A stretch of DNA of 64,000 bases from Bacterioplanoides pacificum (GCF_042648445.1 NZ_JBHRYB010000001.1:626711-690710), one strand, 5' to 3'. Positions 29,497 through 61,271 are shown, counted from the first letter of the stretch. Translations and numbers: made by a program. The notes: a model not told the origin generated them from the sequence alone.

Positions 29497-29511
29497 GGCA
29501 AGGAGCACGAT

Positions 29512-30201: not shown

Positions 30202-30264
30202 TGTAAACTGCCGGCCAGCTGCCGCGGTGGCGGCTGGTTATTCAATGAGGCACAGGGAGTAGGG

Positions 30265-30948: not shown

Positions 30949-31009
30949 CAGGCTGTTAAACAGCCACCTTCACCGGTTGTCAAAAACCGGTATTTAAAAC
31001 AAACAGGAA

Positions 31010-32977: not shown

Positions 32978-33060
32978 TACGCTGGTGCCTGTAACCATAG
33001 CGGTTGCAGGCACACCTGATTAACGGATCAATGCCCGGCTGATGGGATAAGGAAAAGTAC

Positions 33061-40964: not shown

Positions 40965-42068
40965 TCATGGAGAGGGTATTTCCCACACGCCTTTCAGCCT
41001 TTCCACGGTATGCCGCCACTTGGTCGCGGTCGGCTTACAGACCGTGTTCTGATTACCAAATAACCCGGTTTCACTGAATGCTTTGCCGGTGGCCTCGGTA
41101 TGCAGCCAGTTGACGGGCACAATGTATTCGGCCATTTCGTCAGGCTCTGCAGCAAAGTCACTGTAATCCATCTGAGTTGGCAGGCTGGTTAATGGCTTAC
41201 CGTCGATACAGAAGTCGCTGATGCGCTGGCGTTCGCCGCTAACAATGCCCACGCCAACATAACCTGTTTTAGGGATGTTCACCCAGACCCGGTCGCCTTC
41301 GGCCAGCATATTCAGAGTGTTGGAATACCACTGGCCGGCACCGGCTGAGATAAATCCGTATTTAAGAGCGTCTTCCCAGTTACGGCGCTCGCCATGGCCG
41401 AAGGATACATAGAACTCGCCATTCCACGGCTCGCGGGCGCCACGGGTGCTGACCAGTTGCTGAGTCTCCTGTGGGTCGATCATCCAGGCACGGGACAGGT
41501 AGCGGTTATTGCCGTCAGTAAATGCAGAAAAGAACACCGCGTTAATACCCACGCCATGGCGGTTGTTCAGGTAGGTGATGATGCGCTCGGTACTGGCATC
41601 CAGCTCAGATGCCACAATCACCATCTGGTGGGAATCATTGATGCTGATGTCTTCCAACGGCTGACCAAATTTCGCCTTAAAAGCTGCATCCAGGCTTTGC
41701 ACTGGCAGCTTATGCTTGGTGGCGAAGTCGACGTAACAATCGACCAGCTGATTGTCTTCCAGCGTTTCTATCCACGAAGCGTAATCAATAGCCTGCGCCA
41801 CCACATCCCGCGGTGTTTTATCGCGCTTTAGTTCAATGATGATGACGCTGCCGTTGGCATCCAGTGCCAGCAGGTCGATGCGCTTATCAAAGCTGGTGCG
41901 TACCTGACGGCCTATCAGCAGCCAGTCGGCGTTGATGATGGATACATCCTGCACAATCAGCTCTTCCAGCTGGTTTTCATCGTCCAGGCGGGCGGTCTCC
42001 AACCGGGTTGGTGTGCTGGCTGTGCTGTTGCCGGCGTTGATGCGCCAGATGCCTTGTTGAATGGCCAT
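40965..42068 (-). CDS. PD-(D/E)xK nuclease fused to EVE/PUA-like domain; candidate modification-dependent (type IV) restriction endonuclease
   Basis: N-terminal IDLLALDANGSVIIIELKRDK (D…ExK core, NucS/DUF91-like). The C-terminal half has an EVE-like pattern: …QWYSNTLNMLAEGDRVWVNIPKTGYVGVGIVSGE…. Confidence 0.5.
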   Translation of the reverse strand: MAIQQGIWRINAGNSTASTPTRLETARLDDENQLEELIVQDVSIINADWLLIGRQVRTSFDKRIDLLALDANGSVIIIELKRDKTPRDVVAQAIDYASWIETLEDNQLVDCYVDFATKHKLPVQSLDAAFKAKFGQPLEDISINDSHQMVIVASELDASTERIITYLNNRHGVGINAVFFSAFTDGNNRYLSRAWMIDPQETQQLVSTRGAREPWNGEFYVSFGHGERRNWEDALKYGFISAGAGQWYSNTLNMLAEGDRVWVNIPKTGYVGVGIVSGERQRISDFCIDGKPLTSLPTQMDYSDFAAEPDEMAEYIVPVNWLHTEATGKAFSETGLFGNQNTVCKPTATKWRHTVERLKGVWEIPSP

Positions 42069-42235: not shown

Positions 42236-43858
42236 TTATGGCTCAAAAAAACTGGCTGGCGGTGATTGCATGGTTCTTTCCATACCATCGCGCAGTGATT
42301 CGAGCTTTAACATAACCTTGCGGTTTTGTGCGTTAAGAATATCCGGTGATACCCATTGGCGATCATCAAAACCGCCAATGTAAACTCTTTCCGTTCTGGT
42401 TTCCCCAGACATCAATCCACGTTCACCAAAACCGACGTAGAGGGGTTTTTGGGTTGTAAAAACGGGAGTCCTTCCGTTGTTCAGGTATAGCCTGGCATGA
42501 ACGTAACCACTGCTGAGGGTTTTGTCGCTCTGGTTGCGTACTGTCACTTGTATGTTGGGTTCGATGCGACCAAAAGAGCCTTTCGTATATTGCAGTTTTA
42601 CATCCAGTATTTCTAAGTCGGCGTTACCGATGCCAACACTGTCCCCATTACTGAAGATAGTTTTTAGTTTACTGATATCCGGTAACACTTTTGCGACCTG
42701 GTTTGCTGTCGTGGTATTGGTATCAAGGCCGCTATGTACGCCCAGCTGGTCAAAGCTCGACGATTTGATCGGGACACTCTTCCTCATGCCATCGCTTATG
42801 CCAATCAAATTCAAAATCAGCTGCCGGTCGCTGGCATTCAGAATGTCGGGGGATTTCCAGCGCTCCTCTGAAAATCCACCCATGCTAACGCGGGTAGTAA
42901 CGGTTGAATTAGGCTTCAGGCCATGGTCACCAAAGAAAATGTACAGATTTTCACGGCTTCGCCCTGCGCTGGTATCTACCGCAGGTTCCTTCTGACCCTG
43001 GATATATAAGCGAGCATCCAGTTTGGCGGAACTTAAATACAGTTCTGTTTTGTTATTCACGGTTATTTCAATGAATGGTTCCGTACTTCTGAAGCTACCC
43101 TCACGATAGCTTAAACGAATATCGGTAATTTCAAGATAGTTGTTTGGAATGGCAGTGTGTCGCCCCTGCTGCATGTGTTTACGCCAGGCAGACGTTTCAT
43201 TTTTATCAGTATTTGAAATTGGCTTTGGTATATCTTTCTTATCAGCAACCTCAATATTTTTTTCAGTAACTTTCGCTGAAGACTTTGGTTCATGCTTAGT
43301 GGTTTGCGATGCAGACGATGGTTTGGGTTGTGGCTTCTGTAGTGCAGCCCGAACCTCTGTATTTTGTTGCCCCAGTTCAGAAACAAGCTTAATAGTCTTC
43401 GTGCCTTCTGGAATTACGAGGGGTTGTACATGTTTAGTTGGCTTTTGATTAATAAGCCATTGATACCCCATATAGAGAACAAGCATGACCATCACCCAGC
43501 GCCAGAACCGCCGACGAGGTTTTGCGGCTGGTATCGGCTTCAAGCCAGAAGCAGGGTCTTGCTGCATTGTTTTAGCACGCTGCATTGTCTGATCAGTCAC
43601 CAACTCTTCCAACTGAGCAACGGCCTTTCTTGCAGTATCCAGAAAAATTTCAGGCTCGCTCAATTCAAAATCATGTTCATGCATCATCTTGTTACGAATC
43701 GTGGCGACATAGCGCAACTTTTTAAGCAACGGCGCTGGAATATAGCGCTCGGCATGTGACAACTTTTCATGCATACCACGCCCTTCGGCCTTGAAGTGCG
43801 TTTCCAGAATATGCTCGGCCTTTTTGGTGTGGTTAATAACCTGTTCGATGATGCTCAT
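42236..43858 (-). CDS. membrane protein with N-terminal DUF4145 (HEPN/Swt1-like) domain, one TM helix and two periplasmic ~150-aa tandem repeats
   Basis: …LRYVATIRNKMMHEHDFELSEPE… is DUF4145-like. TM helix FWRWVMVMLVLYMGYQWLI. The two repeats are YLEITDIRLSYREGSFRSTEPFIEITV…GGFSEERWKSPDILNA and DLEILDVKLQYTKGSFGRIEPNIQVTV…GGFDDRQWVSPDILNA. Confidence 0.5.
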   Translation of the reverse strand: MSIIEQVINHTKKAEHILETHFKAEGRGMHEKLSHAERYIPAPLLKKLRYVATIRNKMMHEHDFELSEPEIFLDTARKAVAQLEELVTDQTMQRAKTMQQDPASGLKPIPAAKPRRRFWRWVMVMLVLYMGYQWLINQKPTKHVQPLVIPEGTKTIKLVSELGQQNTEVRAALQKPQPKPSSASQTTKHEPKSSAKVTEKNIEVADKKDIPKPISNTDKNETSAWRKHMQQGRHTAIPNNYLEITDIRLSYREGSFRSTEPFIEITVNNKTELYLSSAKLDARLYIQGQKEPAVDTSAGRSRENLYIFFGDHGLKPNSTVTTRVSMGGFSEERWKSPDILNASDRQLILNLIGISDGMRKSVPIKSSSFDQLGVHSGLDTNTTTANQVAKVLPDISKLKTIFSNGDSVGIGNADLEILDVKLQYTKGSFGRIEPNIQVTVRNQSDKTLSSGYVHARLYLNNGRTPVFTTQKPLYVGFGERGLMSGETRTERVYIGGFDDRQWVSPDILNAQNRKVMLKLESLRDGMERTMQSPPASFFEP

Positions 43859-43960: not shown

Positions 43961-45850
43961 TCAGTTCAGCGCTTGCTCGATGATGGCGTCGGTGAGGTTT
44001 AGCTGGGTTTCGCTCGCCTGCTGCAGGCGGTCTTTCAGCTGGTCACAGAGGGCGAATAGCTCGCCGACTTTGGCGATGACATTGGTTTGTTCAATTTCAG
44101 ACGGGAAAGGGCAGAGTAAATTTTCTAGTTTTCCCTGGTAAATTGCCCAGACGTTGGTGGTTCCGGATTTTATTTTATCAAGTTCATACTTTCCCGATAT
44201 GCTTCGCATCCAAATATCAATAAAATAAGATGTTGCTGGTTTTGAGAACTTAGCGCGTAGAATATTATTGTTATATAGTATTTTTATATTTTTTTTATTT
44301 TCAAAAACACATGTTTTTCCTACAAGCTCTTTGCTGTTTCTTGTATTGAATAAGAAATCACCAGAACTCAAATGGAATTTTAGTGCTTCTTCTTCTGTTG
44401 CATCCACATTCGTGATTTCTGCAATGTCGAAACCTCCAGTATTTAATATGTTATTCATTTTGAAATAGGGGTACTTCAAGTCGGGTGACTGACTATTTTT
44501 CCCCTTATCTATTCCCACGTGATGTTCAAGTGATAGTGTTCCGAATCTCACCCACTCCCACCCCTCTGGCAGTCCAAACGGTTTCTCTTCGTCACTCACC
44601 GGCGGCAGTTTTTTCGGCTTTTTGATTTTGCCTTCTTTCACCAGTCGGGCTTTTTCGGCGTCGATGCGTTTTAGCAGTTCTGACGCGGGTTCATCCTCTG
44701 GGTTTTGTTGCACCAGTTTACCCATAACGGCGAGTTGGAGGATGGTGTCTTTCAGGCGGTCGATGGCCCAGGCGCCCATGGGGCCGGAGAACAGCAGGTC
44801 GAAGTGTTGGGCGAGGCGTTGCCAGTTATCGCTGAGTTCTTGGGCGTTAGCTGACTCTGTCAGCGTTGCCAGCAGGGTGTCGGTTAGTTGCTGGTGGGCG
44901 GTGAGCTGGTGTTCGCTCTGTTGCTCCAGCTGGTCGCAGAGGGCCATCAGTTCATCGACTTTGGCGACGATACGTTGTTGTTCGGCGAGAGGGGGGAGCG
45001 GAATGCATATATTCCCCCATTTGCCTTTATTCAATATCGAAATGGTAGTGCTTGATGAATTACTCCACGCCATCTCTTGAAAGTATGAACTGCTCAGAGC
45101 TGCGAGCAGATATTCTTCCATAGGCAAGAAGGGGGTTATGGAATTGATCTGTTGATTGAAGCTACAGCGTTCGCGAGATATTGCGCACTTGCCAATAGTC
45201 CCAATACATACCATCAGTAAGGAACCTTTCGGCACCTCTCGACCTAAAGCATTTAGACCCGATTCAGATAGAAACTCGCTAGAGTTCTTCAGTATTCCTT
45301 GGTCAATGTCGCCTGGCTTCACGAATGGGATGTTGCCAGTGAAATATTCTGCCTTTCCTTTCGCTGGTGTCCCCCCTGTTTGGGTATTTCCCAAATTCCC
45401 CAGCCTTACCCATTCCCATCCCTCAGGCAGCTCAAAAGGCTTTTCGTCGTCATTCACCGGCGGCAGCGGCTTCTGCTTTTTCAGCTTACCGTCTTTGACC
45501 AGCTGCGCTTTTTCCGTCTCGATGCGCTGCAGTAACTCTGCAGCCGGTTCGTCATCCGGGTTTTGTGGTACCAGTTTGCCGCGTACGGCCAGCTCTAAAA
45601 TCAGCTCACGCAGTTTTTTGATGCCGGTGAGTTCGAGCTTGCTGCTTTTCCCGGAACCACGGCCGCGCCCAGCGGTGGATTTGGGTGTGACGGTGCTGGT
45701 CCAGAGGTCGAGGTGTTCTGTGACCAGTTGCTGGGGGGGTCGTTGCTCTTTACCCGCCGCAGGCGCTTGGCTGTCCGAACGCTCTGGTGGATTTTGACCA
45801 GCTATCTCTGCTTGGTAGCGCGCTGCGCCTTCGTTGATCTGGTTGCTCAT
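43961..45850 (-). CDS. hsdS: type I restriction-modification specificity subunit HsdS (long form, two TRDs)
   Basis: Conserved HsdS spacer regions occur twice (…KPFELPEGWEWVRLGNL… / …KPFGLPEGWEWVRFGTL…), each followed by a target-recognition domain. Start overlaps the hsdM stop by 4 nt. Confidence 0.85.
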   Translation of the reverse strand: MSNQINEGAARYQAEIAGQNPPERSDSQAPAAGKEQRPPQQLVTEHLDLWTSTVTPKSTAGRGRGSGKSSKLELTGIKKLRELILELAVRGKLVPQNPDDEPAAELLQRIETEKAQLVKDGKLKKQKPLPPVNDDEKPFELPEGWEWVRLGNLGNTQTGGTPAKGKAEYFTGNIPFVKPGDIDQGILKNSSEFLSESGLNALGREVPKGSLLMVCIGTIGKCAISRERCSFNQQINSITPFLPMEEYLLAALSSSYFQEMAWSNSSSTTISILNKGKWGNICIPLPPLAEQQRIVAKVDELMALCDQLEQQSEHQLTAHQQLTDTLLATLTESANAQELSDNWQRLAQHFDLLFSGPMGAWAIDRLKDTILQLAVMGKLVQQNPEDEPASELLKRIDAEKARLVKEGKIKKPKKLPPVSDEEKPFGLPEGWEWVRFGTLSLEHHVGIDKGKNSQSPDLKYPYFKMNNILNTGGFDIAEITNVDATEEEALKFHLSSGDFLFNTRNSKELVGKTCVFENKKNIKILYNNNILRAKFSKPATSYFIDIWMRSISGKYELDKIKSGTTNVWAIYQGKLENLLCPFPSEIEQTNVIAKVGELFALCDQLKDRLQQASETQLNLTDAIIEQALN

Positions 45851-47331
45851 TTGGCGGTTTCTCCGCCTTTTTCGCCCGTGAGAGCAGCAGCCAGTATGCC
45901 TTTGAGCTGGTCGCGCAGTTTCTGGATGTCGTTCTGCTGGTCGGCGTATTGGGCCAGCAGTTCGTCCGGGTCGTGGCTGATTTGCTCTCCGACGTGTGGG
46001 TTTTTGATATCCAGGTTGTAGTTGCGCGCCTGAATATCGCTAAGGCTCACTTTCCAGGCTTGTTCGTTTTCTACACGTTTGGCAAAGCCGTCGGCTTCGT
46101 TGCCCCACCAGTCGATTTCGGTGGCGAATTCGTCAAAGCGCATGGGTTTGGTTTTGCTGTAGCTTTTGTAGCCTTCCGGGTACGGGTGTTCGTAGTACCA
46201 GATGTTCTCGGTCGGTTGGCCTTTGGTGAAGAACAGCAGGTTGGTTTTGATGCCGGTGTATGGGTTAAACACGCCGTTGGGCAGGCGCACGATGGTGTGC
46301 AGGTTGCAGTCATTGAGCAGGCGTTCTTTTAAGCGGGTTTTCATGCCTTCGCCGAACAGAAAGCCATCGGGCAGTACCACGGCGGCGCGGCCACCGTCTT
46401 TCAGCAGGCGGATAAACAGGGCCATAAAGAGGTCGGCGGTTTCGCGGGTGCGGAACTCGGCCGGGAAGTTGTTTTCAATGCCGTCTTCTTCGGTGCCACC
46501 AAACGGCGGGTTAGCCACAATAACGTCGACACGCTCTTTTGGCCCCCAGTCGCGGTAAGGGCGGTTGAGGGTGTTGTCGTGGCGAATCTGATCAGGCGTT
46601 TCGATGCCGTGCAGAATCATGTTGGTGGTGGCCAGCAGGTGCGGCAGTGGCTTTTTCTCAACGCCGTGTATGGTCTGCTGCAGGACTTTTTCGTCTGTTG
46701 GTGACTGCACGTAGCGTTTGCGCTTGTGCTCGATGGTGCAGGTTAAAAAGCCGCCGGTGCCGCAGGCTGGGTCCATCACGCTATCTTCGAGTTTTGGATC
46801 GACGCGGTCGACCATAAATTCGGTGACGGCACGGGGTGTATAAAACTCGCCTGAGTTACCAGCACTTTGCAGGTCTTTCAGAATCTGTTCGTACATGTCG
46901 CCGAAGGCGTGACGCTGCTGCGATTTGTTGAAGTCGATACCTTCCTGAATTTTGTTGATGACCTGACGGATCAGCTGACCAGATTTCATGTAGTTGTAGG
47001 CGTCTTCGAAGACGCTGCGAATCACGGCGGCGCGTTTGTCGCCAGCGATTTCGAGGTTCTGCAGGCCAGGGAAGAGTGTGGCGTCGATAAAGTTTTTCAG
47101 TTCGTCGCCGGTAATGCCTTCCGGGTTAGCTGCCCAGTTACGCCAGCGCATAGCGGTCGGTATCGGGCTTTTGTAATTGTCGTCAAAGAGTTCCCACTCT
47201 TGTTCGCGGTCGTCGTAGATTTTGAGAAACAGCATCCAGACTAGCTGGCCGATGCGCTGGGCGTCGCCGTCGACGCCGACGTCTTTGCGCATGATGTCTT
47301 GGATGGATTTGATTACGGTGCTGATGCTCAT
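45847..47331 (-). CDS. hsdM: type I R-M DNA methyltransferase HsdM
   Basis: N6-adenine MTase motifs: ANPPFG (motif IV) and the SAM-binding DPACGTGGFL. Confidence 0.9.
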   Translation of the reverse strand: MSISTVIKSIQDIMRKDVGVDGDAQRIGQLVWMLFLKIYDDREQEWELFDDNYKSPIPTAMRWRNWAANPEGITGDELKNFIDATLFPGLQNLEIAGDKRAAVIRSVFEDAYNYMKSGQLIRQVINKIQEGIDFNKSQQRHAFGDMYEQILKDLQSAGNSGEFYTPRAVTEFMVDRVDPKLEDSVMDPACGTGGFLTCTIEHKRKRYVQSPTDEKVLQQTIHGVEKKPLPHLLATTNMILHGIETPDQIRHDNTLNRPYRDWGPKERVDVIVANPPFGGTEEDGIENNFPAEFRTRETADLFMALFIRLLKDGGRAAVVLPDGFLFGEGMKTRLKERLLNDCNLHTIVRLPNGVFNPYTGIKTNLLFFTKGQPTENIWYYEHPYPEGYKSYSKTKPMRFDEFATEIDWWGNEADGFAKRVENEQAWKVSLSDIQARNYNLDIKNPHVGEQISHDPDELLAQYADQQNDIQKLRDQLKGILAAALTGEKGGETAK

Positions 47332-47352
47332 GGGGAGGTTCTACCTTCTGTG

Positions 47353-47423
47353 GTCGCGGGCATGGCCCGCTCCTACGTGTTATCTGTTGTGTTTTTGTTC
47401 GCGGGCATGGCCGCACCTACGTT
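47353..47423. repeat. two REP-like palindromic elements
   Basis: The perfect palindrome gcgggcATGgcccgc, plus a degenerate second copy ~45 bp downstream, in the hsdR-hsdM intergenic region. Confidence 0.55.
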
Positions 47424-47453
47424 ATGCCAGGGTGGTGGCAGAAAGCCGGTAGT

Positions 47454-49952
47454 TTAACCGGCTTCGTCGTTGTAGAGGGTATTTTCCAGTTCACGCAGTG
47501 CTTGTTCGTAGCCACTTTTGTCGCCGAAGGCGTTGATCAGCTCCATGCCGGTTCCCAGTTTGTCGAATGGGGGAAGCTGCAGAATCTTGATGTCTTCGAT
47601 GCTCTGTACGCCGGTGTCGGCGTATTTATCAAGCAGGGTGTCGAGTACGGTTTGCGCCTGCTTACTGTAGCGGTCGAAGATGTTACGCCGGCGTTTGGCT
47701 TGTACGGCGCGCTGCTTGCGGGTGAGGGCTGGCTGGTCGTATACGATGTGGGTAATCACATCGAAGGGGTCGGGTTCGTCGCCGAGTTTGCCTTTAAGGT
47801 CGTCGATCAGGTCGTCCCAGGAAACGCCCTGGGCGGTCAGTTCGTCGATAACCGCTTGTTTGCGTTCGGCTTCGTTCCAGCGTTTGAGGAAATCGCTGAG
47901 GGTGGCGTAATGGCCCTGCACCGACTTGCGGGTGAAGTCGGTGAGGTTTTCGGTAATGAGTTTGCCATCGCTGTCGAGATGCTGAATGCGCTGGTCGATG
48001 ATGCTGAACTCGACGTCGCCAATGCGGAATTTTTTCTTCGGCTCGCGTGGCTCGTCACCGGGTTCCCAGGGGCCTGTTCCGGTATCTGCGCCACTATTGC
48101 CCGATGAGGTGCCGTATTCGCCTTCCGGTTCTTTGATGCCGGTTGGCTGTTCAGTACCGTTTTCGTTTGTCGGGTCGGGCGGCAGAATATCGTCGTTATC
48201 ACTGGGGACGTATATCTGTTCGGGGTCGCCGTCGAATTTTTCATCGGCGAACAGTTCCGTCGCTTTCTTAAAATCGAGAATGGTAAACCACTGCTTGCCG
48301 TAGGCTTCGTCGATACGGGTGCCGCGGCCAATAATCTGTTTAAACTCGGTCATCGACTGTATGCGCTGGTCGAGCACTACCAGTTTGCAGGTTTTGGCAT
48401 CGACGCCGGTGGTCATCAACTTACTGGTACAGGCTATAACCGGATAGGGTTCTTCCGGATCGATAAAGTGGTCGAGTTCGGCTTTGCCTTCTTTGTCGTC
48501 GCCGGTGATGCGCATAACGTACTTACGGTTTTTGGCGACCTGCTCCGGGTTCAGGTTAACCAGTAGCTGGCGCATACGCTCTGCGTGGTCGATGTTTTCG
48601 CAGAAGACGATGGTTTTCTGCATAGGGTCGGTTTTTCGCATGTATTCGGTGATGGTCTGGGCAACCAGCAGGGTACGCTGGTCCATAACGATATTTTTAT
48701 CGAAATCGCGCTGGTTGTAGATGCGGTCGTCGATCAGCTGGCCGCTTTTGTCTTTCTGCCCTTTGTTCGGACGCCAGCCCTGCAGGTCTTTATCGAAATC
48801 GACACGAATAACTTTGTAGGGGGCCAGGTAACCGTCGTCGATGCCCTGTTTCAGTGAGTAGGTGTAAACGGGTTCTCCAAAGTAGTGGATGTTGGATACT
48901 TCTTTGGTTTCTTTGGGCGTGGCGGTGAGGCCGATGTGGGTGGCGCTGTCAAAGTATTCGAGAATTGCCCGCCATGCTGAGTCTTCTGCGGCACTGCCGC
49001 GATGGCACTCGTCGATCACAATCAGATCGAAGAAATCGGGTGAGAACTGTTTGTAGACGTTGCGTTCTTCTTCGGTGCCACTCAGGGCCTGATACAGACC
49101 GAGGTAGATTTCATAGGAGGTGTCTACCTTGTTGACCCGGTCTTTGTCTTTTTTAACGGCGAGTTCGATATCCAGCTTTTTGCCGTTGCGTTCCATACCG
49201 CCACCTCGTGGCGATAGCTTGGCCATGGCGCCAGCGAAGGGTTTGAAGTCGTTGTTCATGGTCTGGTCGACCAGAATGTTGCGGTCGGCCAGGAACAGAA
49301 TGCGTTTCTTCTGTTTCGACTTCCACAAACGCCAGATTATCTGAAAAGCGGTGTAGGTTTTGCCGGTACCGGTGGCCATAACCAGCAGAATACGGTCTTG
49401 CCCTTTGGCGACGGCTTCAATGGTGCGGTTAATGGCCACCATCTGGTAATAGCGCGGCGTTCTGTCGTTGGCGGCTTCGTGATAGGGCTGGCTCATGGCG
49501 GCCTGACCATCCGGGATATCTTTCCAGCGGCAATAGGCTGCCCACAGGGTATCGGGGCCTGGTAATTCGCTCAGAGCAATTTCGGTTTCTACTTGTGGGT
49601 AGATCAGCCCGTGCGGGTCACGGAACAGGAAGCTATCGCCATTACTGCTGATGGCGAAGGGCACGTCCAGCTTTTCGGCATAATCCATCGCTTGCTGCAT
49701 ACCGTCACCAACGCGGTGCTTGTTGTCTTTGGCTTCGATAACGGCAATGGGCTTGGCTTTCTGGTAGCAGAGAACATAGTCGGCCCGGCGTGGGGCCTGG
49801 CGGCTGTGCATTCGGCCACGCACGACGATACGGCCATCGCTGACAGAAAATTCTTCATAGACCTGGGTCTGGATATCCCAGCCAGCGCTGATAATGGCAG
49901 GTGTGATGTACTTGGTGCGGATATCCGTTTCGGTCAGGCTGCGCTTATCCAT
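47454..49952 (-). CDS. hsdR: type I R-M restriction subunit HsdR (helicase/endonuclease)
   Basis: 832 aa. N-terminal PD-(D/E)xK-like region, Walker A MATGTGKTYTA, DEAH-like IVIDECHR, and helicase C motifs (QIIGRGTR). Confidence 0.9.
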   Translation of the reverse strand: MDKRSLTETDIRTKYITPAIISAGWDIQTQVYEEFSVSDGRIVVRGRMHSRQAPRRADYVLCYQKAKPIAVIEAKDNKHRVGDGMQQAMDYAEKLDVPFAISSNGDSFLFRDPHGLIYPQVETEIALSELPGPDTLWAAYCRWKDIPDGQAAMSQPYHEAANDRTPRYYQMVAINRTIEAVAKGQDRILLVMATGTGKTYTAFQIIWRLWKSKQKKRILFLADRNILVDQTMNNDFKPFAGAMAKLSPRGGGMERNGKKLDIELAVKKDKDRVNKVDTSYEIYLGLYQALSGTEEERNVYKQFSPDFFDLIVIDECHRGSAAEDSAWRAILEYFDSATHIGLTATPKETKEVSNIHYFGEPVYTYSLKQGIDDGYLAPYKVIRVDFDKDLQGWRPNKGQKDKSGQLIDDRIYNQRDFDKNIVMDQRTLLVAQTITEYMRKTDPMQKTIVFCENIDHAERMRQLLVNLNPEQVAKNRKYVMRITGDDKEGKAELDHFIDPEEPYPVIACTSKLMTTGVDAKTCKLVVLDQRIQSMTEFKQIIGRGTRIDEAYGKQWFTILDFKKATELFADEKFDGDPEQIYVPSDNDDILPPDPTNENGTEQPTGIKEPEGEYGTSSGNSGADTGTGPWEPGDEPREPKKKFRIGDVEFSIIDQRIQHLDSDGKLITENLTDFTRKSVQGHYATLSDFLKRWNEAERKQAVIDELTAQGVSWDDLIDDLKGKLGDEPDPFDVITHIVYDQPALTRKQRAVQAKRRRNIFDRYSKQAQTVLDTLLDKYADTGVQSIEDIKILQLPPFDKLGTGMELINAFGDKSGYEQALRELENTLYNDEAG

Positions 49953-50145
49953 GCTGATGGGGTCAACTCCGGTCGCTGAGAATTTAGTTAGCAGGAGTGT
50001 ACTGGAGTTTGCCGGTGCGCTGAAGCCTCTGGGCGGGTTGCGCCAGGGGGTGTAAGAATTTTTGACAGGTGGCTGGCCTCCCCAACGGCACCGTATGCGT
50101 TCTGTTCGCCAGAACGGGCGGTGCCCCTTGGTAATCTATAAAGGA

Positions 50146-50279
50146 GTACGCATAGCGGGTAATGCGAGAGTAAAAAGCCGCCGGACTGGTACGCATAGCG
50201 GGTAGTTCAGCATCTTGCTGGTGGAGTGGCCGGTTGTATTGGCCCACATAGCGGGTAGTTTGGTACGCATAGCGGGCAG
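50146..50279. repeat. iteron-like direct repeats (4 copies of ~GTACGCATAGCGGGTAG)
   Basis: Copies at 50146, 50189, 50245 (partial) and 50263. They lie in the intergenic region between the 137-aa gene and the hsdR start. Confidence 0.6.
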
Positions 50280-51883: not shown

Positions 51884-51907
51884 TCTCAGAGTCCATTCAT
51901 GTTGCTG

Positions 51908-53071
51908 TTATAGATTATCCGCCCACCACTGAAGCATTTCCGTTCGTTCTTCCAGATAGTCCGCCCGGTTGTAGGCTTTACGTATCTGATTGCGCTCTTC
52001 GTGGGCCAGTTGTTTTTCGATCACATCCGGCCTGAATCCGGCTTCATTCAATACGGTTGAAGCGGTGGAGCGTAATCCGTGAGTGGTGGTGTGCTCTTTG
52101 AAGCCTGTGCGTTTAAGCAGCACCAAAAAGGCATTTTCAGACAAAGGCTTCTCAATGGTATTGGGGCTTCGCAAAAGCCATTCAGTGTGGCCCGTGTGTT
52201 GTTTAAGCTCTGTCAGTACATCAATGGCTTGACGGCTTAAGGGTATCAGGTGGTCTGTCTTCATTTTCATACGCTCTGCCGGAATTAGCCAAAGCTGCTT
52301 TTCAAAGTCGATTTCACTCCAGCGACCAAAGCGTACTTCACCGGTTCGGGTCATGGTCAGTATTAGCAGCTTAAGTCCTAGCTTTACTACCGGGTGGCCT
52401 CCGTATGCGTCGATACTGGTCAAGAAACTCCCCATCATTGCGAATGGTAAGGCACGCTGATGGTTGACGGCTGGTACGGCTTTTAGCGCTGGAGTGATAC
52501 CTGTTACCGGGTTGTTTTCGACGAGTCCTTCAGCAATGGCAAATGCAAAGATACCTTGAAGGTAATTTTTTACTTTGCGGGTGGTTTCACCAATGCCTTC
52601 GTTTTCCATTAAGCGCAGTACAGTCAATACGTCGGCGCTGGTAATCTGGTGAATGGGTTTGTCGCTAAGGTAGGGCATTAAGCGCCGGTCAATCATCTGG
52701 CGAACTTTGAGCGCGTAGCGCGGTGTCCATCTGGGGGTATTGAGTTCGTGCCAGCGGTAAGCCAACACCCCAAAAAGATTCTGAGCCTGAATACGTTGTA
52801 GGCGCTTGGCTTCCATGCGTTCGTCGGTGGGATCAATGCCTTTGCGAATCTTAGATTTGGCAATGTCGCGTTCTTGTCTGGCTTCCTTTAACGAATAATC
52901 GGGGTATTGGCCGATGGTATAGGCTTTCTCCTTGCCATCTAGGCGGTATTTTACCCGCCACGATTTGATCCCTGTTTTGCTAACCATCAAATACAAGCCG
53001 CCAGCATCAGATAGCTTATATCCCTTATCCTTGGGCTTTGCGGCTTTGATAGCGGCAACGGTCAATGACAT
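51908..53071 (-). CDS. int: tyrosine-type site-specific integrase (P4-like, DUF4102 arm-binding N-terminus)
   Basis: MSLTVAAIKAAKPKDKGYKLSDAGGLYLMV… N-terminus and the C-terminal catalytic region R…HGLR…Y. The start at 53071 is preceded by AAGGAGA. Confidence 0.85.
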   Translation of the reverse strand: MSLTVAAIKAAKPKDKGYKLSDAGGLYLMVSKTGIKSWRVKYRLDGKEKAYTIGQYPDYSLKEARQERDIAKSKIRKGIDPTDERMEAKRLQRIQAQNLFGVLAYRWHELNTPRWTPRYALKVRQMIDRRLMPYLSDKPIHQITSADVLTVLRLMENEGIGETTRKVKNYLQGIFAFAIAEGLVENNPVTGITPALKAVPAVNHQRALPFAMMGSFLTSIDAYGGHPVVKLGLKLLILTMTRTGEVRFGRWSEIDFEKQLWLIPAERMKMKTDHLIPLSRQAIDVLTELKQHTGHTEWLLRSPNTIEKPLSENAFLVLLKRTGFKEHTTTHGLRSTASTVLNEAGFRPDVIEKQLAHEERNQIRKAYNRADYLEERTEMLQWWADNL

Positions 53072-53361
53072 TGGTTGTTCTCCTTGTGGGGGTATTGGAG
53101 CTACCCGAACACGATACCCCCTGTGCAATACCCCTAACTAGGAGCGGTTGTCCATAGACGTTGCTGGTCGCCTGAGAATATGAATGTCAGTATTAATGCG
53201 GCTTTGGGGGTGGTTTAGAGGTTGTTTCATGTGCGGTAAAGCAGGAAGTGAGCAAATTTCTAGATAACTTGAGCTGATTGTTCCGTATATAGAAGTAATG
53301 GTTGTTAATGAACCTCTATTGGATCTAACAATAAGAGTCAATAATGGCGCCTCAGCTTTTC

Positions 53362-53835
53362 CTAACCAGTGAACTCTAATCTGTATGTAAAGCTATATGG
53401 CCTCGACAGATTACTCAGTAGACAACCGGCTATGCCTCCTCCTAGAAGAAAAAGAAGCCAATTACCGCTTTTAGTATAGCTACCAGCTACTCCTCCTAAT
53501 ATCGCACCAATTAAAGTAGCTTGCAGCTGAGGACTATACTTCCTACCCTGAATTAGCATATATGCAATATGTTCACAGTTATTACCGACTACTTCGTACC
53601 GATGATCATTGTTCAAGATACGCTCCAACCTCTTGGTCAATAATGAGTGATCATCTACATGGCTACGAATTACCTTGACTGGTTTCCCTTCGGAATACTG
53701 ATCAACAGAGATTAGTTCAACATTGTTCTGAGGGCTGTTATGCAAAACTTGCCCATTGCCCAGGTAAACCCCTGCATGCTGAATAATGCCTTTGCTTCTA
53801 TATAGCAAATCACCGGATTTCAGATTATTATTCAT
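53362..53835 (-). CDS. PLAAT/LRAT-like (NlpC/P60 superfamily) phospholipase A/acyltransferase with C-terminal TM anchor
   Basis: HAGVYLGNGQVLH matches the PLAAT H-box (HWAIYVGDGYVVH) and NNCEHIAYML matches NCEHF with a catalytic Cys. The C-terminus has two hydrophobic helices. 157 aa. Confidence 0.7.
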   Translation of the reverse strand: MNNNLKSGDLLYRSKGIIQHAGVYLGNGQVLHNSPQNNVELISVDQYSEGKPVKVIRSHVDDHSLLTKRLERILNNDHRYEVVGNNCEHIAYMLIQGRKYSPQLQATLIGAILGGVAGSYTKSGNWLLFLLGGGIAGCLLSNLSRPYSFTYRLEFTG

Positions 53836-53852
53836 TTACAAACTTCCTATTC

Positions 53853-53888
53853 ATTTACGTTTTACGCAAATATACATTAAACGTAAAT
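53853..53888. promoter_or_regulatory. candidate operator: 10-bp perfect inverted repeat ATTTACGTTT…AAACGTAAAT (plus direct repeat TTCATTTAC)
   Basis: Lies in the divergent intergenic region between the PLAAT-like gene and the XRE regulator. Confidence 0.45.
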
Positions 53889-53933
53889 AGTTGCAAACTT
53901 GCTTTGTCCTAAATAGTATAAATTTGGTGATTT

Positions 53934-54314
53934 ATGAATGCTGAACAAACGTCCTATTCTGCTGTTTTGGGTGTTGTCTTGAGCAACCTCCGTAAAGAGC
54001 GCCGTATTGAACAAGGCGAAATGGCGGCAAGAATGGGGCTTTCTCAAGCAAGCTATAGTCGTCTTGAAAGTGGAAAATCAGCTTTTTCTATCGATCAGAT
54101 GTATCAGGCTGCCTCTGCACTAGGAATAGATGAGAGTGAAATTACAACTCGTCTAAATTCCACAGTTATCCAGCTAAATGCCAATGGAGTACGCGTCGTC
54201 CCTCAGTTAAGGGGAAACACCACACAAGCGAAACAGGAAAGCTCTGATGTCGGAAATTTTATCGCTGGAGCAGCGTTAGGTGGATTACTAATTGGACTAC
54301 TGAGCCGGAAATAA
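53934..54314 (+). CDS. XRE/Cro-C1-type HTH regulator with C-terminal transmembrane helix
   Basis: …EMAARMGLSQASYSRLESGK… is an HTH_XRE. The C-terminus is FIAGAALGGLLIGLLSRK. Its stop lies 18 nt before the giant STAND gene. Confidence 0.65.
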   Translation: MNAEQTSYSAVLGVVLSNLRKERRIEQGEMAARMGLSQASYSRLESGKSAFSIDQMYQAASALGIDESEITTRLNSTVIQLNANGVRVVPQLRGNTTQAKQESSDVGNFIAGAALGGLLIGLLSRK

Positions 54315-54331
54315 CACAGACAGGATGTCAA

Positions 54332-57300
54332 ATGGCAAGCAAAAGCAATAACAGAAAGACAGATTCATCGGAGCTAGTTCGCTACTCCAGAGCAGGAGAC
54401 ACCTTTCACTATCGCTGGGCTGCGAGACGCTGTTTACGTCTGCTTGATTTCAATTCAGACCTAACCCACATCACTATTGAGGGCTCTAAAGAAGCAAAAC
54501 TCGGCGGCGAATATGTCATTGATACAGCTGAATACAGCTCGGACAATGGTAAAGGATCATCAGTCGCTTATTTTCAACTAAAACATTCAACTACACGCTG
54601 CAATGAAAACTTCACTCTTAGCGGCCTGAAAGAAACTATTATCGGATTTTCTAACAGATATAAAGATCTCCAAGAAAAAAACCATAGTTTTACATCTATC
54701 CAATTCCTAATAATAACTAACCGACCAATAAGCCCTAGATTTAAAGAGTCTATTAACAAGTTAGCAAGGGGTGAATCCGGTGGAAAAAGCTTCGACGATA
54801 CGATAAAGGCTTACTCAAAACTTACGGGAAAGAAGTTACAAGAGTTTTGCGGTCTCCTAAAGTTAGTTGACGGTGAAGGTAATTATGATGCACAAAAACA
54901 TGCTTTACACCGAGAAATAGCCAATTTGGCCTGTGATAGCAGTGATGTTAGTCAAATGCTAAAGCTTGTCGAACTAGTACGCGAGAGAATAGAGCCTGGA
55001 GCCAAAAAACAAGAAATTGACAGAAATGACGTTCTAGAGCAATTTGGTCTAACGTCTGAAAAAGACTTGTTCCCAGCCCCCCCCTTATTTGAAAAGCTAC
55101 CTTCAATTATTGAGCGTGAACAGTATGATAGCCTTTATAAAGAAATAGTAGATTCTACATCTCCATTTACGATCCTATCTGCTGTAGGTGGCACCGGTAA
55201 ATCAATAACATGTAATCATTTAGTTGATAGGTTTGTTAATGGTTCCCTAGCTATTGCTTATGATTGTTTTGGCAATGGCGGATATAGAAGATTAAGTGGA
55301 CATAGGCATCGCACATATGATGCTTATATACAGGTTGCAAATGAACTTGCTCAAAAGGGATTGTGCGAACCCATAATTCCAAGTAGCAGGAATCACGATG
55401 ACAGGCTTACAAAGTTATTCCTATCGCGATTATCTCAGTCTATCGAAAAACTAAAAGAGAGAAACGAGAATGCTCTGTTAATTATTTTATTTGATGCTGT
55501 TGATAATGCAGAAATGGCCGCTACAGAGTTTGGGGACAGGTGCTTTGCCAGTCACCTATTGAAAGAAAACATTCCAGACGGATGCCGAGTCGTTTACCTC
55601 TCTCGTCCTGAACGGATAAAATTATTTTCCCCATCAGAAAAAATTCCACAAATTGAAATAAAGCCATTTAGTGATAATGAGACTCTATTCCATCTTAAAA
55701 CAAAGTACCCAGAAGCCACTCTTGAAAATGCTGTTGAATATCGACGACTAACTAATGGAAACCCCCGGGTTCAGGCTAATGCACTAGCATTGAATAAGAA
55801 CTCGGTCGACGACTTATTAACTCATTTTAGCGCTAGGGAGAAAACGGTAAATGACCTAATTGAAGACCAGCTTAATAATGCTTTGACAACAATAAAGGAG
55901 CAATACCCTAATAGCTTCAGAACTCATGTCGAAGATATCTGTACAGGTCTTGCGACACTACCACCATTTGTACCGGTTGAAGTACTTGCAGCAGCTGCTG
56001 AAGTTAGTGTTTCGGCCGTGAAAAGCTTTATCTCTGACCTAGGTCGGCCTCTTTGGTTAACGGATAACTATGTACAATTTAGGGATGAACCAACTGAAAG
56101 CTGGTTCGTCTCAACATTCAGCGCTAAGAAAAGGCAGATAAAGGCTTATATTTCTAGATTGAAGCCTTTAGCTGGCAAATTCTCCTATGTTGCCGAAGCC
56201 TTGCCATCTCTTTTACTAAAAGCAGGGCAATACAAAGAGATTATTCGTCTTGCTTTGTCGGAAGATATGTTACCGACTGACAACCCAGTTGAATCGAGAA
56301 GCATCCAGGTTTACCGATTACAATTTGCATTCAAGGCAGCTCTAAAGAATAAGAAGTATTTAGATGCCTGTAAGCTTGCGCTACGTGCGGGAGAAGAAGT
56401 TTCAGGAACGGATCGGCAAATAGAGCTATTAACTAAAAATATTGATCTCGCTACTCAGTATTTATCTCCACAGCGCATCATGGATCTAGCTCATCAGCGT
56501 GAAATGAGCGGTGAATGGAATGGCTCAGAAACCCTATATTCATCAGCACTATTAGCACCAATGCCAGAATGTGAGGGTGAGGCGCGTAGTTATTTAAGGT
56601 CAGGTTGGCATTGGTTAACACGTTATATTGAAGATAGAGATAGTAGAGATGAACGATCCCACTATAGAGATAGTATTAAAGACATCGACATATTAGTCAT
56701 GTTTTATAGCTGCTTCTACCTTGATGGTTATAAAGCAGCGATTGATTTTATCTTACGCTGTAAACCACCTGAGCTGATTTTCAGAATAGTATCTGATTTT
56801 TCTTCAAGGATGGTAGATAAAGCTGAATATGAAGTATTAGAGCTAATGGCTCATTATGGTAAAAATTGCCCTCCACTGGTTCTTGCGATAACACATGAAT
56901 TACTTAAGATTGGCCGTATACCAGACAAAAAGTGCATTACTCGAGCACTAAATAAAATTGTAGGGCCTGGAAAGTGGCTTATTAAGCCGAAAGGTGGATT
57001 CGATAATCACAACATTAGCACTTCTGCTTATCTGTCATTGCTCGAAGCCTCGATAATCCATAAGCTCCCTCTGAAAAATATCAAGCGAGCACTAAATTAC
57101 TATATTGATGGGCCTAGAGCATATTCTATAAATTCTGATTGGGATGGCAGTAGTAGAAGTTGTTTTATGAGGTCTATATCAATTAGAGCCTGTATAAATA
57201 ATTCTTTTGATTTTTCAGTCGAATCTGTCATTCCAAAGTCATGGTACTTAGACAGCAATGATTATCATGATAGAGAGGAAGTTAAGGGGGCTAAAGAAGC

Positions 57301-60300: not shown

Positions 60301-60664
60301 CCAACTTGATATATATTCAGACAATGAATCATGCCAATGGATTGATTCAAATGGGGCTGTCATTGCGCATGGTCAGATTTGGAGTGAAGACAAGCCTTTG
60401 CGAGAAGACGAGGAGTATTGTTGTAGAGGCAACCGATTACAGGCCTCATTAAGCTTCTTAAAAAAAATGTGTAAAAAGTTGGATGTAGATTTAGCAATAC
60501 AAGTAGATATAAAAAGAGATTTAGTCGGAATACATAGAGATAGGAACGATGATATTGGATATCTCCCCCCATATAGAAAAATTTTTATCCTCTCCAGAAA
60601 TGGAGTGCTCAAAGACACAAGCACGACTTTTAGGCTTAGGGAACAAGTTAGCGAAGAACTTTGA
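54332..60664 (+). CDS. 2110-aa STAND-class NTPase with N-terminal Cap4-like (DUF4297, D…QxK) nuclease domain and long helical-repeat C-terminus (Avs-like antiviral ATPase)
   Basis: N-terminal …RAGDTFHYRWAARRCLRLL…EYVIDTAE…AYFQLKHS…. Walker A SAVGGTGKS (~aa 288) and Walker B LIILFDAVDNAE (~aa 385). ~1600 aa of W/Y-rich alpha-helical repeats follow. Low GC. Confidence 0.65.
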   Translation: MASKSNNRKTDSSELVRYSRAGDTFHYRWAARRCLRLLDFNSDLTHITIEGSKEAKLGGEYVIDTAEYSSDNGKGSSVAYFQLKHSTTRCNENFTLSGLKETIIGFSNRYKDLQEKNHSFTSIQFLIITNRPISPRFKESINKLARGESGGKSFDDTIKAYSKLTGKKLQEFCGLLKLVDGEGNYDAQKHALHREIANLACDSSDVSQMLKLVELVRERIEPGAKKQEIDRNDVLEQFGLTSEKDLFPAPPLFEKLPSIIEREQYDSLYKEIVDSTSPFTILSAVGGTGKSITCNHLVDRFVNGSLAIAYDCFGNGGYRRLSGHRHRTYDAYIQVANELAQKGLCEPIIPSSRNHDDRLTKLFLSRLSQSIEKLKERNENALLIILFDAVDNAEMAATEFGDRCFASHLLKENIPDGCRVVYLSRPERIKLFSPSEKIPQIEIKPFSDNETLFHLKTKYPEATLENAVEYRRLTNGNPRVQANALALNKNSVDDLLTHFSAREKTVNDLIEDQLNNALTTIKEQYPNSFRTHVEDICTGLATLPPFVPVEVLAAAAEVSVSAVKSFISDLGRPLWLTDNYVQFRDEPTESWFVSTFSAKKRQIKAYISRLKPLAGKFSYVAEALPSLLLKAGQYKEIIRLALSEDMLPTDNPVESRSIQVYRLQFAFKAALKNKKYLDACKLALRAGEEVSGTDRQIELLTKNIDLATQYLSPQRIMDLAHQREMSGEWNGSETLYSSALLAPMPECEGEARSYLRSGWHWLTRYIEDRDSRDERSHYRDSIKDIDILVMFYSCFYLDGYKAAIDFILRCKPPELIFRIVSDFSSRMVDKAEYEVLELMAHYGKNCPPLVLAITHELLKIGRIPDKKCITRALNKIVGPGKWLIKPKGGFDNHNISTSAYLSLLEASIIHKLPLKNIKRALNYYIDGPRAYSINSDWDGSSRSCFMRSISIRACINNSFDFSVESVIPKSWYLDSNDYHDREEVKGAKEAISILLPWYLIRARLLSGNRISIEDWHQKAKEGSSRLLRSRYKTYDPLPFEITTARFFNLAISQTNVDKELDDIASGINDNSISFRYPDKVNALRIANRQIRLTRISDILEESCYKTAKIVDEEESPIDHANNFINLSRAVLSISKADAEIYFEEAIAAVSRFGDEAYERWMAVNSIAKRSAEKLTNRSKHAYRYMRCAELIGDTIGREKKWDRDGAMETCFHLSPESAFAIASRWKDRDVGRSGRMLASLLQTAVVENAISPSAAWSLSVLPFDYDLSIFAEQCIEREYDESRRKIIFDSLISDFRKKGITGKPWKKMSEISEKYGLFNEVLNDLAILMREKSEGGSETGRNFLIKEPKESDHQIGLYDDINILSDEGLQEVLERFESLDFPKDVDAPWKYAASKLTAGNATKFLFLLANSEFLNAYHIQNAINWIPDRLKRKPSVIKIWPDIIKIIAKRFPEEFTRWYSRDRILGEIGSDVTTVNAIREGVLEGLSESNGLESASTFFGFVDYYVNSLSSSDAAKLLDYALTRFELHINDGYSDGNWSSSLEPPENIVQSFTGYLWAALGSPRASEHWCAMHAVRRLYQLRCEEELDALLEWMISDSAGSFIYKGYPFYNMHAKQHLLMALARCAIEDPSVIVGKHKIFSNIALNEQHILIQKYAADIARSIAKIFPSAHTEKVLVQLEEIEKSPFQIEYSDNYNEKRDTPWHKDKSIALDTGLYFAHDFDRYWFEPLGEVFKVPGSQVEDLAADVIMNDWKLPVSERFIRDPRQDIWNSYRDQSTYHSHSGYPKTATYSFYLSYHSMMVAAAKLLNAMPTFHSRDWHENQWEDWLHRHLLTRKDQYWLSDTRGFIPAHRRAWTDDKTDKDWRWQVLPRDFLEVLLLQREKDTWLNVAGSWDEYYNGHNEHISVSSRLVPSWASSSLQRAMTQYRSHWPGTSSLDAFSGQEENDNCNGNPFRLSCWYSNAYQDNGVDELDPYAGCIGYPPCTIHQDVMSQLDIYSDNESCQWIDSNGAVIAHGQIWSEDKPLREDEEYCCRGNRLQASLSFLKKMCKKLDVDLAIQVDIKRDLVGIHRDRNDDIGYLPPYRKIFILSRNGVLKDTSTTFRLREQVSEEL

Positions 60665-61271
60665 AGGTGATAATGGAGATGAATTAAGCGAATGGATGTC
60701 TCATTATATCGCCGAAAAAATTCTGGAACTAGAAGTGGCTACTGGTGAAGAGAAAAGATCTTTACAAAAATATTGCTTTGAAGCGATATTGCTACTATGG
60801 AGTCATCAGGCCTATTTCCCTAGTGGATCTAGACCATTTGAAAACTTTGAACCAGTATTCCGAGCTCTTGATCATATAGACCCAGATAGGCCAGGGTATT
60901 CTTATATCAACGAACAACCGGAGGCAAATTCTGATGTCCCTAAAGATATAGACCTATACGTCAAATATATTGTCAATCTTGATGCTACAACAAGAGTGCT
61001 GCTTTCATACTTTGTAGAGCTAGCCATAAGTTCTGCAGCTGACCAGAGCACAAAAGATTGGATTAATAGTCTAGGTGTGGAGACTAGATCAGAGGTACCT
61101 AAAGTTCTTTTGAGTTTTTATAGGGACAGACGTGAGAAATCGGATAAAGACATAGTTGAAGAAAAGATTGAAAAATTGTCTGATCAAATTCGAAAAATCG
61201 ACGCTTTTGTAGATGTTAGCAAAGATATTAGATTAGAATTAGCCAGAAAGATCGAAAATCTGAAAGGCTAA
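60549..61271 (+). CDS. hypothetical helical protein overlapping the 3' end of the giant gene (possible frameshifted C-terminal extension)
   Basis: 240-aa ORF in the +1 frame, starting at ATG 60549 (or 60600). A C6 tract at 60564-60569 sits at the frame junction. Confidence 0.35.
   Translation: MILDISPHIEKFLSSPEMECSKTQARLLGLGNKLAKNFEGDNGDELSEWMSHYIAEKILELEVATGEEKRSLQKYCFEAILLLWSHQAYFPSGSRPFENFEPVFRALDHIDPDRPGYSYINEQPEANSDVPKDIDLYVKYIVNLDATTRVLLSYFVELAISSAADQSTKDWINSLGVETRSEVPKVLLSFYRDRREKSDKDIVEEKIEKLSDQIRKIDAFVDVSKDIRLELARKIENLKG

Follow-up and report, generated by a model that had tools for sequence, protein, structure and literature searches.

An LRAT-like membrane enzyme and a divergent XRE-family partner form a portable 1-kb module, possibly a silenced lipid toxin, in marine bacterial defence islands

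The DNA analysed here is a 64,000-nucleotide stretch (the window) of the genome of Bacterioplanoides pacificum, a member of the Oceanospirillaceae (NZ_JBHRYB010000001.1:626711-690710; window coordinates are counted from its first letter). It carries, on the minus strand at 53362-53835, an LRAT/PLAAT-like gene of the permuted NlpC/P60 type, an open reading frame (ORF) with an ATG start that encodes 157 amino acids. On the opposite strand, beyond a divergent spacer of 98 nucleotides (nt; 53836-53933), lies the gene for a 126-residue XRE-family helix-turn-helix (HTH) protein (53934-54314, plus strand). The original prediction centred on the enzyme gene and overlooked its divergent, tail-bearing HTH partner, which, together with a shared operator, defines the real unit at this locus.

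Sequence and structural modelling place the 157-residue protein in the LRAT-like, circularly permuted branch of the NlpC/P60 enzymes. The ordered motifs HxGxYxGxGxVxH and NCEH(I/F) on which the original prediction relied are borne out, because the protein reads H20-A-G-V-Y-L-G-N-G-Q-V-L-H32 and then N86-C87-E88-H89-I90. The catalytic order is thus circularly permuted, with a histidine, a second histidine, and then the NCEH cysteine near the C-terminus of the domain. Codons for His20, His32, and Cys87 fall at 53776-53778, 53740-53742, and 53575-53577 (minus strand), within a predicted cytoplasmic catalytic domain of residues 1-100 (53536-53835, minus strand). The Pfam LRAT profile (PF04970) is matched over positions 2-118 of 120 with E = 7.9e-10 and 39.5 bits, compared with a gathering score of 24.3. 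Alignment of 37 homologues, each with 38-55% identity to the window protein, shows H20, H32, N86, C87, and E88 to be invariant. This family assignment is itself not new, as the exact database match is already annotated by NCBI as the "lecithin retinol acyltransferase family protein" of B. pacificum.

The closest solved folds are those of PLAAT chains. When compared with the PDB, a family profile matched PLAAT2, PLAAT3, LRAT chimera, and PLAAT4 chains at E = 6e-10 to 1e-5, and the best solved relatives were PLAAT2 (4dpz, E = 6e-10), PLAAT3 (4fa0, 4dot, and 7zom), the HRASLS3/LRAT chimera, and PLAAT4. In this profile alignment, both histidines and the NCEH cysteine pair residue for residue with the HWAIYVG...VVH and NCEHF segments of PLAAT2/3, which upholds the earlier expectation that they correspond to the PLAAT catalytic residues. 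The AlphaFold2 (AF2) model of the enzyme (predicted local distance difference test [pLDDT] score 88.9; predicted template modelling [pTM] score 0.82) shows a papain-like alpha+beta fold with the cysteine at the N-terminus of a helix facing the histidine-bearing strands. Its layout comprises a beta core (residues 10-56), a helix at 63-75, a helix at 87-96 that starts at Cys87, and two long helices (102-120 and 126-144). The best Foldseek matches to this model were PLAAT3 and PLAAT2, with target template modelling (TM) scores of 0.61-0.71.

The original prediction also called the enzyme eukaryote-type, and this label does not survive a look at its relatives. Recent horizontal transfer of PLAAT/HRASLS from an animal would explain why human PLAAT2/3/4 are the best solved-structure matches, but identity of the window protein to PLAAT is just ~22-25% and the anchor architecture (see below) is unlike that of PLAAT. 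Moreover, the 60 closest proteins all come from marine bacteria or unlabelled marine metagenome contigs, and the named sources (Vibrio, Marinobacter, Kangiella, Sessilibacter, and Spongiibacteraceae) are all Gammaproteobacteria. An exhaustive profile search returned 3,896 relatives at E ≤ 1e-3, including 536 at E ≤ 1e-10 and 45 cluster representatives at E ≤ 1e-30, and almost all of the best 150 of the 3,896 are short proteins of ~85-230 residues. Bacterial permuted NlpC/P60 enzymes have also been placed as the probable ancestors of their eukaryotic counterparts (PMC3142127). We therefore reject a recent eukaryotic origin as very improbable. Separately, four large proteins in the search (P0181, P0215, P0229, and P0301; 435-1,183 residues) carry 4-11 tandem LRAT-like profile matches.

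A role as a classical secreted NlpC/P60 peptidoglycan endopeptidase was likewise rejected and seems next to impossible. Partial matches to NLPC_P60 (Pfam E = 6.4e-8) and to MepS/Spr do point that way, but all of them are confined to residues 3-45, which hold the histidine-bearing strands, and the region of the cysteine helix aligns to LRAT/PLAAT only. The NCBIfam score is 20 bits, compared with cut-offs of 186-335. Most important, the histidines precede the cysteine in the permuted triad, and the protein sequence shows no sign of an N-terminal signal peptide.

The C-terminal tail of the enzyme is rich in Gly, Ala, and Leu and forms a two-helix glycine-zipper membrane hairpin (residues 102-144; 53404-53532, minus strand). 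The Pfam Glycine zipper 2TM profile (PF05433) matches residues 106-142 with E = 3e-5, the helices at 102-120 and 126-144 are modelled with pLDDT >90, and hydrophobicity peaks at about the same segments. The C-terminal membrane anchor suggested earlier is therefore predicted, but as a two-helix hairpin rather than as the single tail typical of PLAAT proteins. From these features, the enzyme is predicted to be anchored in the inner membrane and to face the cytoplasm.

The partner protein matches Pfam HTH_3 (E = 2.5e-11), with the HTH at residues 8-70 (53955-54143), and bears a hydrophobic Gly/Ala tail at residues 106-124 (54249-54305, plus strand); its C-terminal end reads ...VGNFIAGAALGGLLIGLLSRK. 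The AF2 model is folded over residues 1-92, disordered over 95-106, and ends in a helix at 113-124. There are 275 members of this HTH family at E ≤ 1e-10, and the best 120 of these are 119-152 residues long. In an alignment of 36 of the HTH proteins, the architecture is conserved, with a folded domain (1-92) followed by an RGN.T.AK motif, a linker that is disordered, and a hydrophobic tail rich in Gly and Ala. In the PDB, the partner resembles both antitoxin-type and controller-type proteins, and its closest likenesses are to the toxin-antitoxin (TA) antitoxins HigA3 and PezA and to C.BclI, a controller of restriction-modification (R-M). Its PADLOC matches are limited to generic HTH, control-protein, and capH models, the last of which is weak (E = 1.9e-5).

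Pairing of the two genes was assessed in 39 family loci (the window included; numbered L001 onward), which represent ~20 distinct contexts and were seeded from either gene. Three routes contributed: exact-protein look-ups of LRAT homologues, a one-genome-per-species scan (13 loci), and look-ups seeded by HTH homologues on contigs that had no obvious match in the LRAT list. With HTH orthology set at phmmer E ≤ 1e-34, an orthologous HTH gene adjoins the LRAT gene on the opposite strand in all but one of the 39 loci, and the orthologues at paired loci are 125-143 residues long. The coupling holds in both directions, since each of the four HTH-seeded look-ups led to an LRAT partner. When loci are compared pairwise, identity of the enzyme and identity of the HTH protein correlate with r = 0.97, a value inflated by shared phylogeny, which indicates co-inheritance without partner swapping. 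One further locus (L026), outside the 39, holds just a distant plasmid relative of LRAT and has no HTH gene. We regard the pairing as obligate in the family, with the orphan LRAT gene of L012 (see below) as the single exception.

The spacer between the two genes contains an operator-like palindrome at 53853-53888. It holds two copies of the 14-mer TTACGTTTAAYGTA (53855-53868 and 53873-53886), whose core is TACGT-N3-ACGTA, and it includes a 10-nt perfect inverted repeat, ATTTACGTTT/AAACGTAAAT, at 53853-53862 and 53879-53888. Even with up to two mismatches allowed, these two copies are the only matches to TTACGTTTAAYGTA in the window. In the other loci, exact copies occur only in the LRAT-HTH spacers of L007, L009, L027 (two copies), and L036, while the variants TACGTTTTACGCA and ACGTAAAACGTA occupy the same place in Vibrio, Marinobacter (L023 and L031), and L029. 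Conservation of the palindrome extends to loci at which the proteins are just ~45-60% identical, and the form of its core is of the kind that a dimeric HTH protein would be expected to bind.

A consensus scan gave a single sigma-70-like match for LRAT transcription, at 53869-53897 (minus strand), which is a pattern match only. Its -35 element (TTTGCA/TTGCAA) lies at 53897-53892 and its -10 element (TATATT) at 53874-53869, so that, by coordinates, the -10 falls between the operator arms. Inspection by eye suggests that TTGCAA at 53891-53896, itself a palindrome, could double as the -35 of a rightward HTH promoter with TAGTAT at 53914-53919. Such a shared -35 would give the spacer a layout resembling that of a CI-type switch.

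Comparisons among Vibrio genomes set the edges of the unit. Pairs that are ~85% identical in DNA have different neighbours, and the block of L021 shared with L013 or L022 (7465-8469 of L021) is exactly the HTH gene, the spacer, and the LRAT gene, with homology ending no more than 15 nt from both stop codons. Because homology is limited to the pair, the pair constitutes a discrete module of ~1.0 kb. Novelty appears to lie in this module, which couples an LRAT-like membrane enzyme to an XRE repressor with a tail and to an operator common to both, and which heads many different defence cassettes as a 1-kb unit.

In the window, this module sits within an island. A P4-type tyrosine integrase gene (51908-53128, minus strand; Arm-DNA-bind_3, Phage_int_M, and Phage_integrase domains) is directly downstream of LRAT and marks the left part of the island, and the G+C content (GC) falls from ~0.54 to ~0.40 around 51-53 kb and stays low through the window end. 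Neither att-like direct repeats nor a tRNA or tmRNA target for the integrase was found within the window; two tandem tRNA-Lys(UUU) genes (7960-8035 and 8122-8197, plus strand) lie far from the island. To the right, outside the conserved pair, is variable cargo in the form of Avs3a, a STAND NTPase/nuclease anti-phage sensor (54332-60664, plus strand), and Avs3b (60549-61271, plus strand). Avs3a gives 1461.6 bits with its PADLOC model (positions 3-2088 of 2090) and 1588 bits with NCBIfam against an equivalog cut-off of 2800, and Avs3b matches the two resources at E = 5.7e-42 and 1.5e-38, respectively. The locus therefore has full-length profile matches to both proteins of AVAST type 3, and because the NCBIfam scores are under the equivalog cut-offs we regard Avs3a/b as divergent members. 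The listed Avs3b ORF overlaps Avs3a, and its true start is probably further downstream. With these genes adjoining the pair, and with a type I R-M operon and the integrase nearby, the defence-island setting described in the original prediction stands. The gap between the HTH stop and the Avs3a start is 17 nt and has no terminator, which makes transcriptional read-through from HTH into Avs3 likely in the window.

We use the term cargo for the genes that follow HTH in the same direction, and these vary by locus. DarT/DarG follows in L013, an Mrr fragment with TmtA/Tiamat in L020, and type I R-M systems of several families, usually after Mrr, in L001, L014-L019, L021, L022, and L024, the last of which also has a PtuA-like ATPase. 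Other loci carry a RES-domain protein (L007), HsdM-S-RES-GmrSD (L009), DUF2196, NYN, and type I R-M (L027), an uncharacterised 1,189-residue protein followed by Peptidase_M78 and DUF4411 (L029), BrxR with a type II cyclic-oligonucleotide-based antiphage signaling system (CBASS; L030), or uncharacterised proteins of 672 and 1,072 residues (L036). In three Marinobacter genomes, the cargo is an uncharacterised protein of 447-450 residues (L023, 1499-2842; L031, 5072-6418; L032, 6525-7877). The L023 copy of this protein has no Pfam or PADLOC match, and in L032 the protein is followed by a 774-residue Pkinase/HD_assoc protein; its gene is a candidate defence gene. The Alcanivorax pair precedes the housekeeping genes RDD-queA-tgt-yajC-secDF.

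The LRAT side of the pair is also variable, with Gabija-like or helicase pairs, integrases, and insertion sequence (IS) elements. A tyrosine integrase is present on that side in the window, L029, and L030, and L029 has the same int-LRAT-HTH order as the window, which places the pair between the core of the element and its cargo. In Vibrio L001 (6576-10285), L016, L021, and L024, a conserved gene pair on the LRAT side is convergent with LRAT and encodes a 656-residue UvrD-like helicase (a NERD+UvrD-type match) and a 576-residue, MkoA-like AAA_11/12 helicase; these two genes might be a defence system.

Overall, the distribution of the module is sporadic and strain-specific, in variable regions flanked by integrases or IS elements. 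Phage and plasmid collections contain nearly no members, aside from two weak "NC domain" matches in records labelled Acinetobacter phage, and distant LRAT proteins on other plasmids are without an HTH partner; the near-absence from these collections indicates that the module is not typically phage- or plasmid-borne. The element is not enterobacterial, as E. coli genomes gave no megablast match to 51900-54400. On a V. anguillarum chromosome (L039, 4001-5768), IS66 truncates LRAT before the cysteine codon and leaves HTH, Mrr, and HsdR intact. V. anguillarum VIB43 p15 (L025, NZ_CP023056.1) is a 15-kb, IS66-flanked circular "plasmid" that duplicates the chromosomal LRAT-HTH-Mrr-type I R-M region with its R-M genes fragmented. 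The truncated LRAT gene fits a costly gene or a dispensable accessory.

The position of the module ahead of so many defence genes raises the prospect that it is a controller for the adjacent operon. In this scheme, the HTH protein would regulate the co-directional cargo (Avs3 here) and the LRAT-like enzyme would be an anti-repressor that responds to a signal from the membrane or from infection by cleaving, acylating, or sequestering the tailed repressor, by analogy with CapP/CapH and ImmA/ImmR. In most contexts, HTH and the gene after it do run in the same direction, often only a short distance apart (17 nt here, 36-124 nt elsewhere), and a recognised defence system follows it in at least 12 of ~19 paired contexts. 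Its matches to PADLOC control-protein and capH models and to C.BclI suit such a role, as does the persistence of HTH and cargo after IS66 has destroyed LRAT. Amide cleavage is chemically possible for papain-like NlpC/P60 enzymes, and the RGN.T.AK motif and disordered linker ahead of the tail could be a processing site. However, Vibrio homology breaks within 15 nt past the HTH stop, which means that cargo and pair are inherited separately. DarT lies ~400 nt away, the CBASS that adjoins the pair in L030 comes with a BrxR of its own, and in Alcanivorax the genes that follow are not defence genes at all. Furthermore, characterised LRAT-clade enzymes all act on lipid esters rather than on proteins, and an operator over the LRAT promoter would make the enzyme a target of repression and not a sensor that is made constitutively. 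On balance, we consider the controller scheme unlikely.

The arrangement that we tentatively favour, at somewhat below even likelihood, is that the module is a repressor-silenced toxin that attacks membrane lipids, similar to a toxin-antitoxin, abortive-infection, or addiction module, and that it resides in defence islands. Most likely, a dimer of the XRE repressor would bind the TACGT-N3-ACGTA palindromes over the enzyme promoter and silence the enzyme while still allowing its own transcription, which in the window probably runs on into Avs3a/b. Phage infection, a disturbed membrane, or loss of the element might each remove or inactivate the repressor, and synthesis of the enzyme would follow. 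Using Cys87, His20, and His32, the enzyme would then remove acyl chains from inner-membrane phospholipids or transfer them, by phospholipase A1/2- or N-acyltransferase-type chemistry, and the attack would damage the membrane and stop growth. The HTH protein might also neutralise or co-localise with the enzyme through small-xxx-small helix packing, for which the candidate segments are AGAALGGLLIG in the HTH tail and LIGAILGGVAG and LLGGGIAG in the LRAT protein.

Permuted NlpC/P60 enzymes are known to form a thioester acyl-enzyme on the catalytic cysteine, with lipid acyl chains as the target (PMC12994826; PMC7387801; PMC3142127). Tox-Act1 and TseH in particular are bacterial permuted phospholipase toxins that kill by hydrolysing phospholipids, with membrane damage and lysophospholipid build-up (PMC12994826). 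The module also has the adjacency and co-inheritance of a toxin and a DNA-binding antitoxin that mark type II TA systems, in that 38 of 39 loci are paired within a sharp-edged block of 1.0 kb. The IS66 knock-out of LRAT with HTH and cargo kept, which would befit a costly, dispensable gene, speaks for the silenced-toxin interpretation as well. So do the conserved operator that overlaps the LRAT -10 element, the many defence genes found after HTH, and the likeness of the HTH protein to TA antitoxins (HigA and PezA) and R-M controllers.

Several observations weigh against a silenced toxin. No PADLOC-DB v2 model matches the LRAT protein, and literature searches on LRAT, PLAAT, and NlpC in phage defence found no link; the sole trace is a table in a Vibrio pangenome study in which an LRAT family protein co-occurs with an integrase, DUF2787 proteins, and a DNA-binding protein (PMC12409351). 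In contrast to typical type II TA systems, the two genes are divergent rather than co-transcribed, and the candidate toxin gene does occur by itself. That orphan, in L012 (Oleiphilaceae), has H/H/NCEH intact and lies among housekeeping-like genes, and no HTH remnant was found at the locus, so the enzyme is not necessarily lethal without its partner. Divergent orientation is in any case atypical for type II TA pairs. The Alcanivorax pair is beside housekeeping genes (RDD, queA, tgt, and secDF) rather than defence genes. Moreover, the HTH tail has ~16-19 hydrophobic residues modelled with pLDDT ~50 and may not span the membrane, and the promoter calls are consensus matches that occur at chance frequency for the region.

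Some of the same observations would suit a milder function, in which the enzyme carries out non-lethal membrane remodelling (e.g., N-acyl-phosphatidylethanolamine formation or acyl-chain exchange) for superinfection exclusion or stress adaptation, with HTH as an ordinary local regulator. PLAAT/LRAT enzymes include both acyltransferases and phospholipases (PMC7387801; PMC3142127), the intact orphan in L012 is tolerated, and the Alcanivorax pair adjoins housekeeping membrane genes. Yet harmful genes are the more typical setting for tight control by an operator that lies over a promoter. The module is also patchily distributed and strain-specific, within variable regions bordered by integrases or IS elements, and the enzyme gene is repeatedly set among defence systems on both sides. 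Non-lethal remodelling thus strikes us as quite unlikely.

A more specific form of the silenced toxin, which we hold to be doubtful but worth stating, is an uncatalogued and self-contained anti-phage system of the abortive-infection type. Here, a membrane-tethered, CI-like repressor would silence the PLAAT-like enzyme, the Gly-zipper tail of the repressor would report perturbation of the membrane or envelope by phage, and release would lead to Cys87-dependent destruction of the inner membrane.

Known systems resemble the silenced-toxin module in part. Tox-Act1 and TseH are type VI secretion system (T6SS) effectors that are secreted, attack from the periplasmic side, and are countered by immunity proteins in the membrane (PMC12994826). 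Unlike them, the window protein is predicted to be non-secreted, to face its own cytoplasm, to carry its own hairpin, and to be paired with a DNA-binding repressor, and it belongs to the LRAT clade rather than to the clades of Tox-Act1 or TseH. It differs from vertebrate PLAAT1-5 (HRASLS) and LRAT, which have a single tail anchor, in its two-helix glycine-zipper hairpin, and also in that its gene is bacterial, has a dedicated repressor gene, and lies in mobile defence islands. With TA systems that have XRE antitoxins (HigA, PezA, and HipB-like) and with R-M C proteins, the module shares a small XRE HTH protein with a palindromic operator at that protein's own promoter, but the divergent genes, the hydrophobic HTH tail, and a membrane lipid enzyme as candidate toxin set it apart. 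CapH/CapP and ImmR/ImmA also pair an XRE repressor with an adjoining hydrolase, and such pairs lead the operons of defence systems or mobile elements. In those systems, however, the hydrolase is an M78/IrrE metalloprotease rather than a cysteine LRAT-like enzyme and the orientation differs, whereas both proteins here are apparently membrane-associated. Finally, CapV, the patatin phospholipase of CBASS, is a suicide effector that hydrolyses phospholipids when activated by cyclic nucleotides. The idea of suicide by hydrolysis is the same, but the fold is unrelated, and the module encodes no sensor or signal, its control being apparently transcriptional.

Other parts of the window hold additional genes that may be relevant to defence. 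A complete type I R-M operon of the EcoAI/FtnUII family (43961-49952, minus strand), which encodes HsdR (832 residues), HsdM (494), and HsdS (629), lies to the left of the integrase and has a host-like GC of ~0.53-0.55. Between this operon and the integrase, at 50144-50279, are four copies of the 19-nt direct repeat TGGTACGCATAGCGGGTAG that are 84-100% identical; they lie inside a 114-residue ORF without a family match and may be a repetitive extragenic palindromic (REP)-like or junction element. At 40965-42068 (minus strand), a 367-residue protein with a NucS_C-like nuclease domain is a full-length match to the single-gene PADLOC candidate PDC-S11 (E = 1.3e-145), and the 540-residue ORF beside it (42236-43858) has no family match. 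A co-directional cluster at 28870-39058 (plus strand) includes a 1,815-residue protein (33061-38508) with DUF3686 ("ATPase involved in DNA repair"), DUF7902, and AAA_5. Ahead of it are an unannotatable 655-residue protein and three ORFs of ~210-230 residues, one with a weak LmuB match. No PADLOC system matched this cluster, and perhaps it is an uncatalogued defence or repair system.

The functions of bacterial LRAT-clade enzymes are essentially unstudied, and the bacterial permuted NlpC/P60 lipid enzymes characterised in the literature we surveyed are only secreted T6SS toxins and lipoprotein N-acyltransferases. The pair described here offers a compact, clonable module, composed of an enzyme, a tail-bearing repressor, and an operator, that is found at the junctions of many defence cassettes in marine Gammaproteobacteria. 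If the module proved to regulate adjacent systems, it would represent a new type of defence-island controller. If it is truly an abortive-infection or addiction module, both its effector chemistry and its mode of control, through a membrane-associated repressor, would be new to bacterial immunity, and it would provide evolutionary context for the membrane-rupturing PLAATs of animals. Should the more specific anti-phage proposal be true, the enzyme would be a bacterial counterpart of organelle rupture by animal PLAATs, and bacteria and animals would share this immune-type module.

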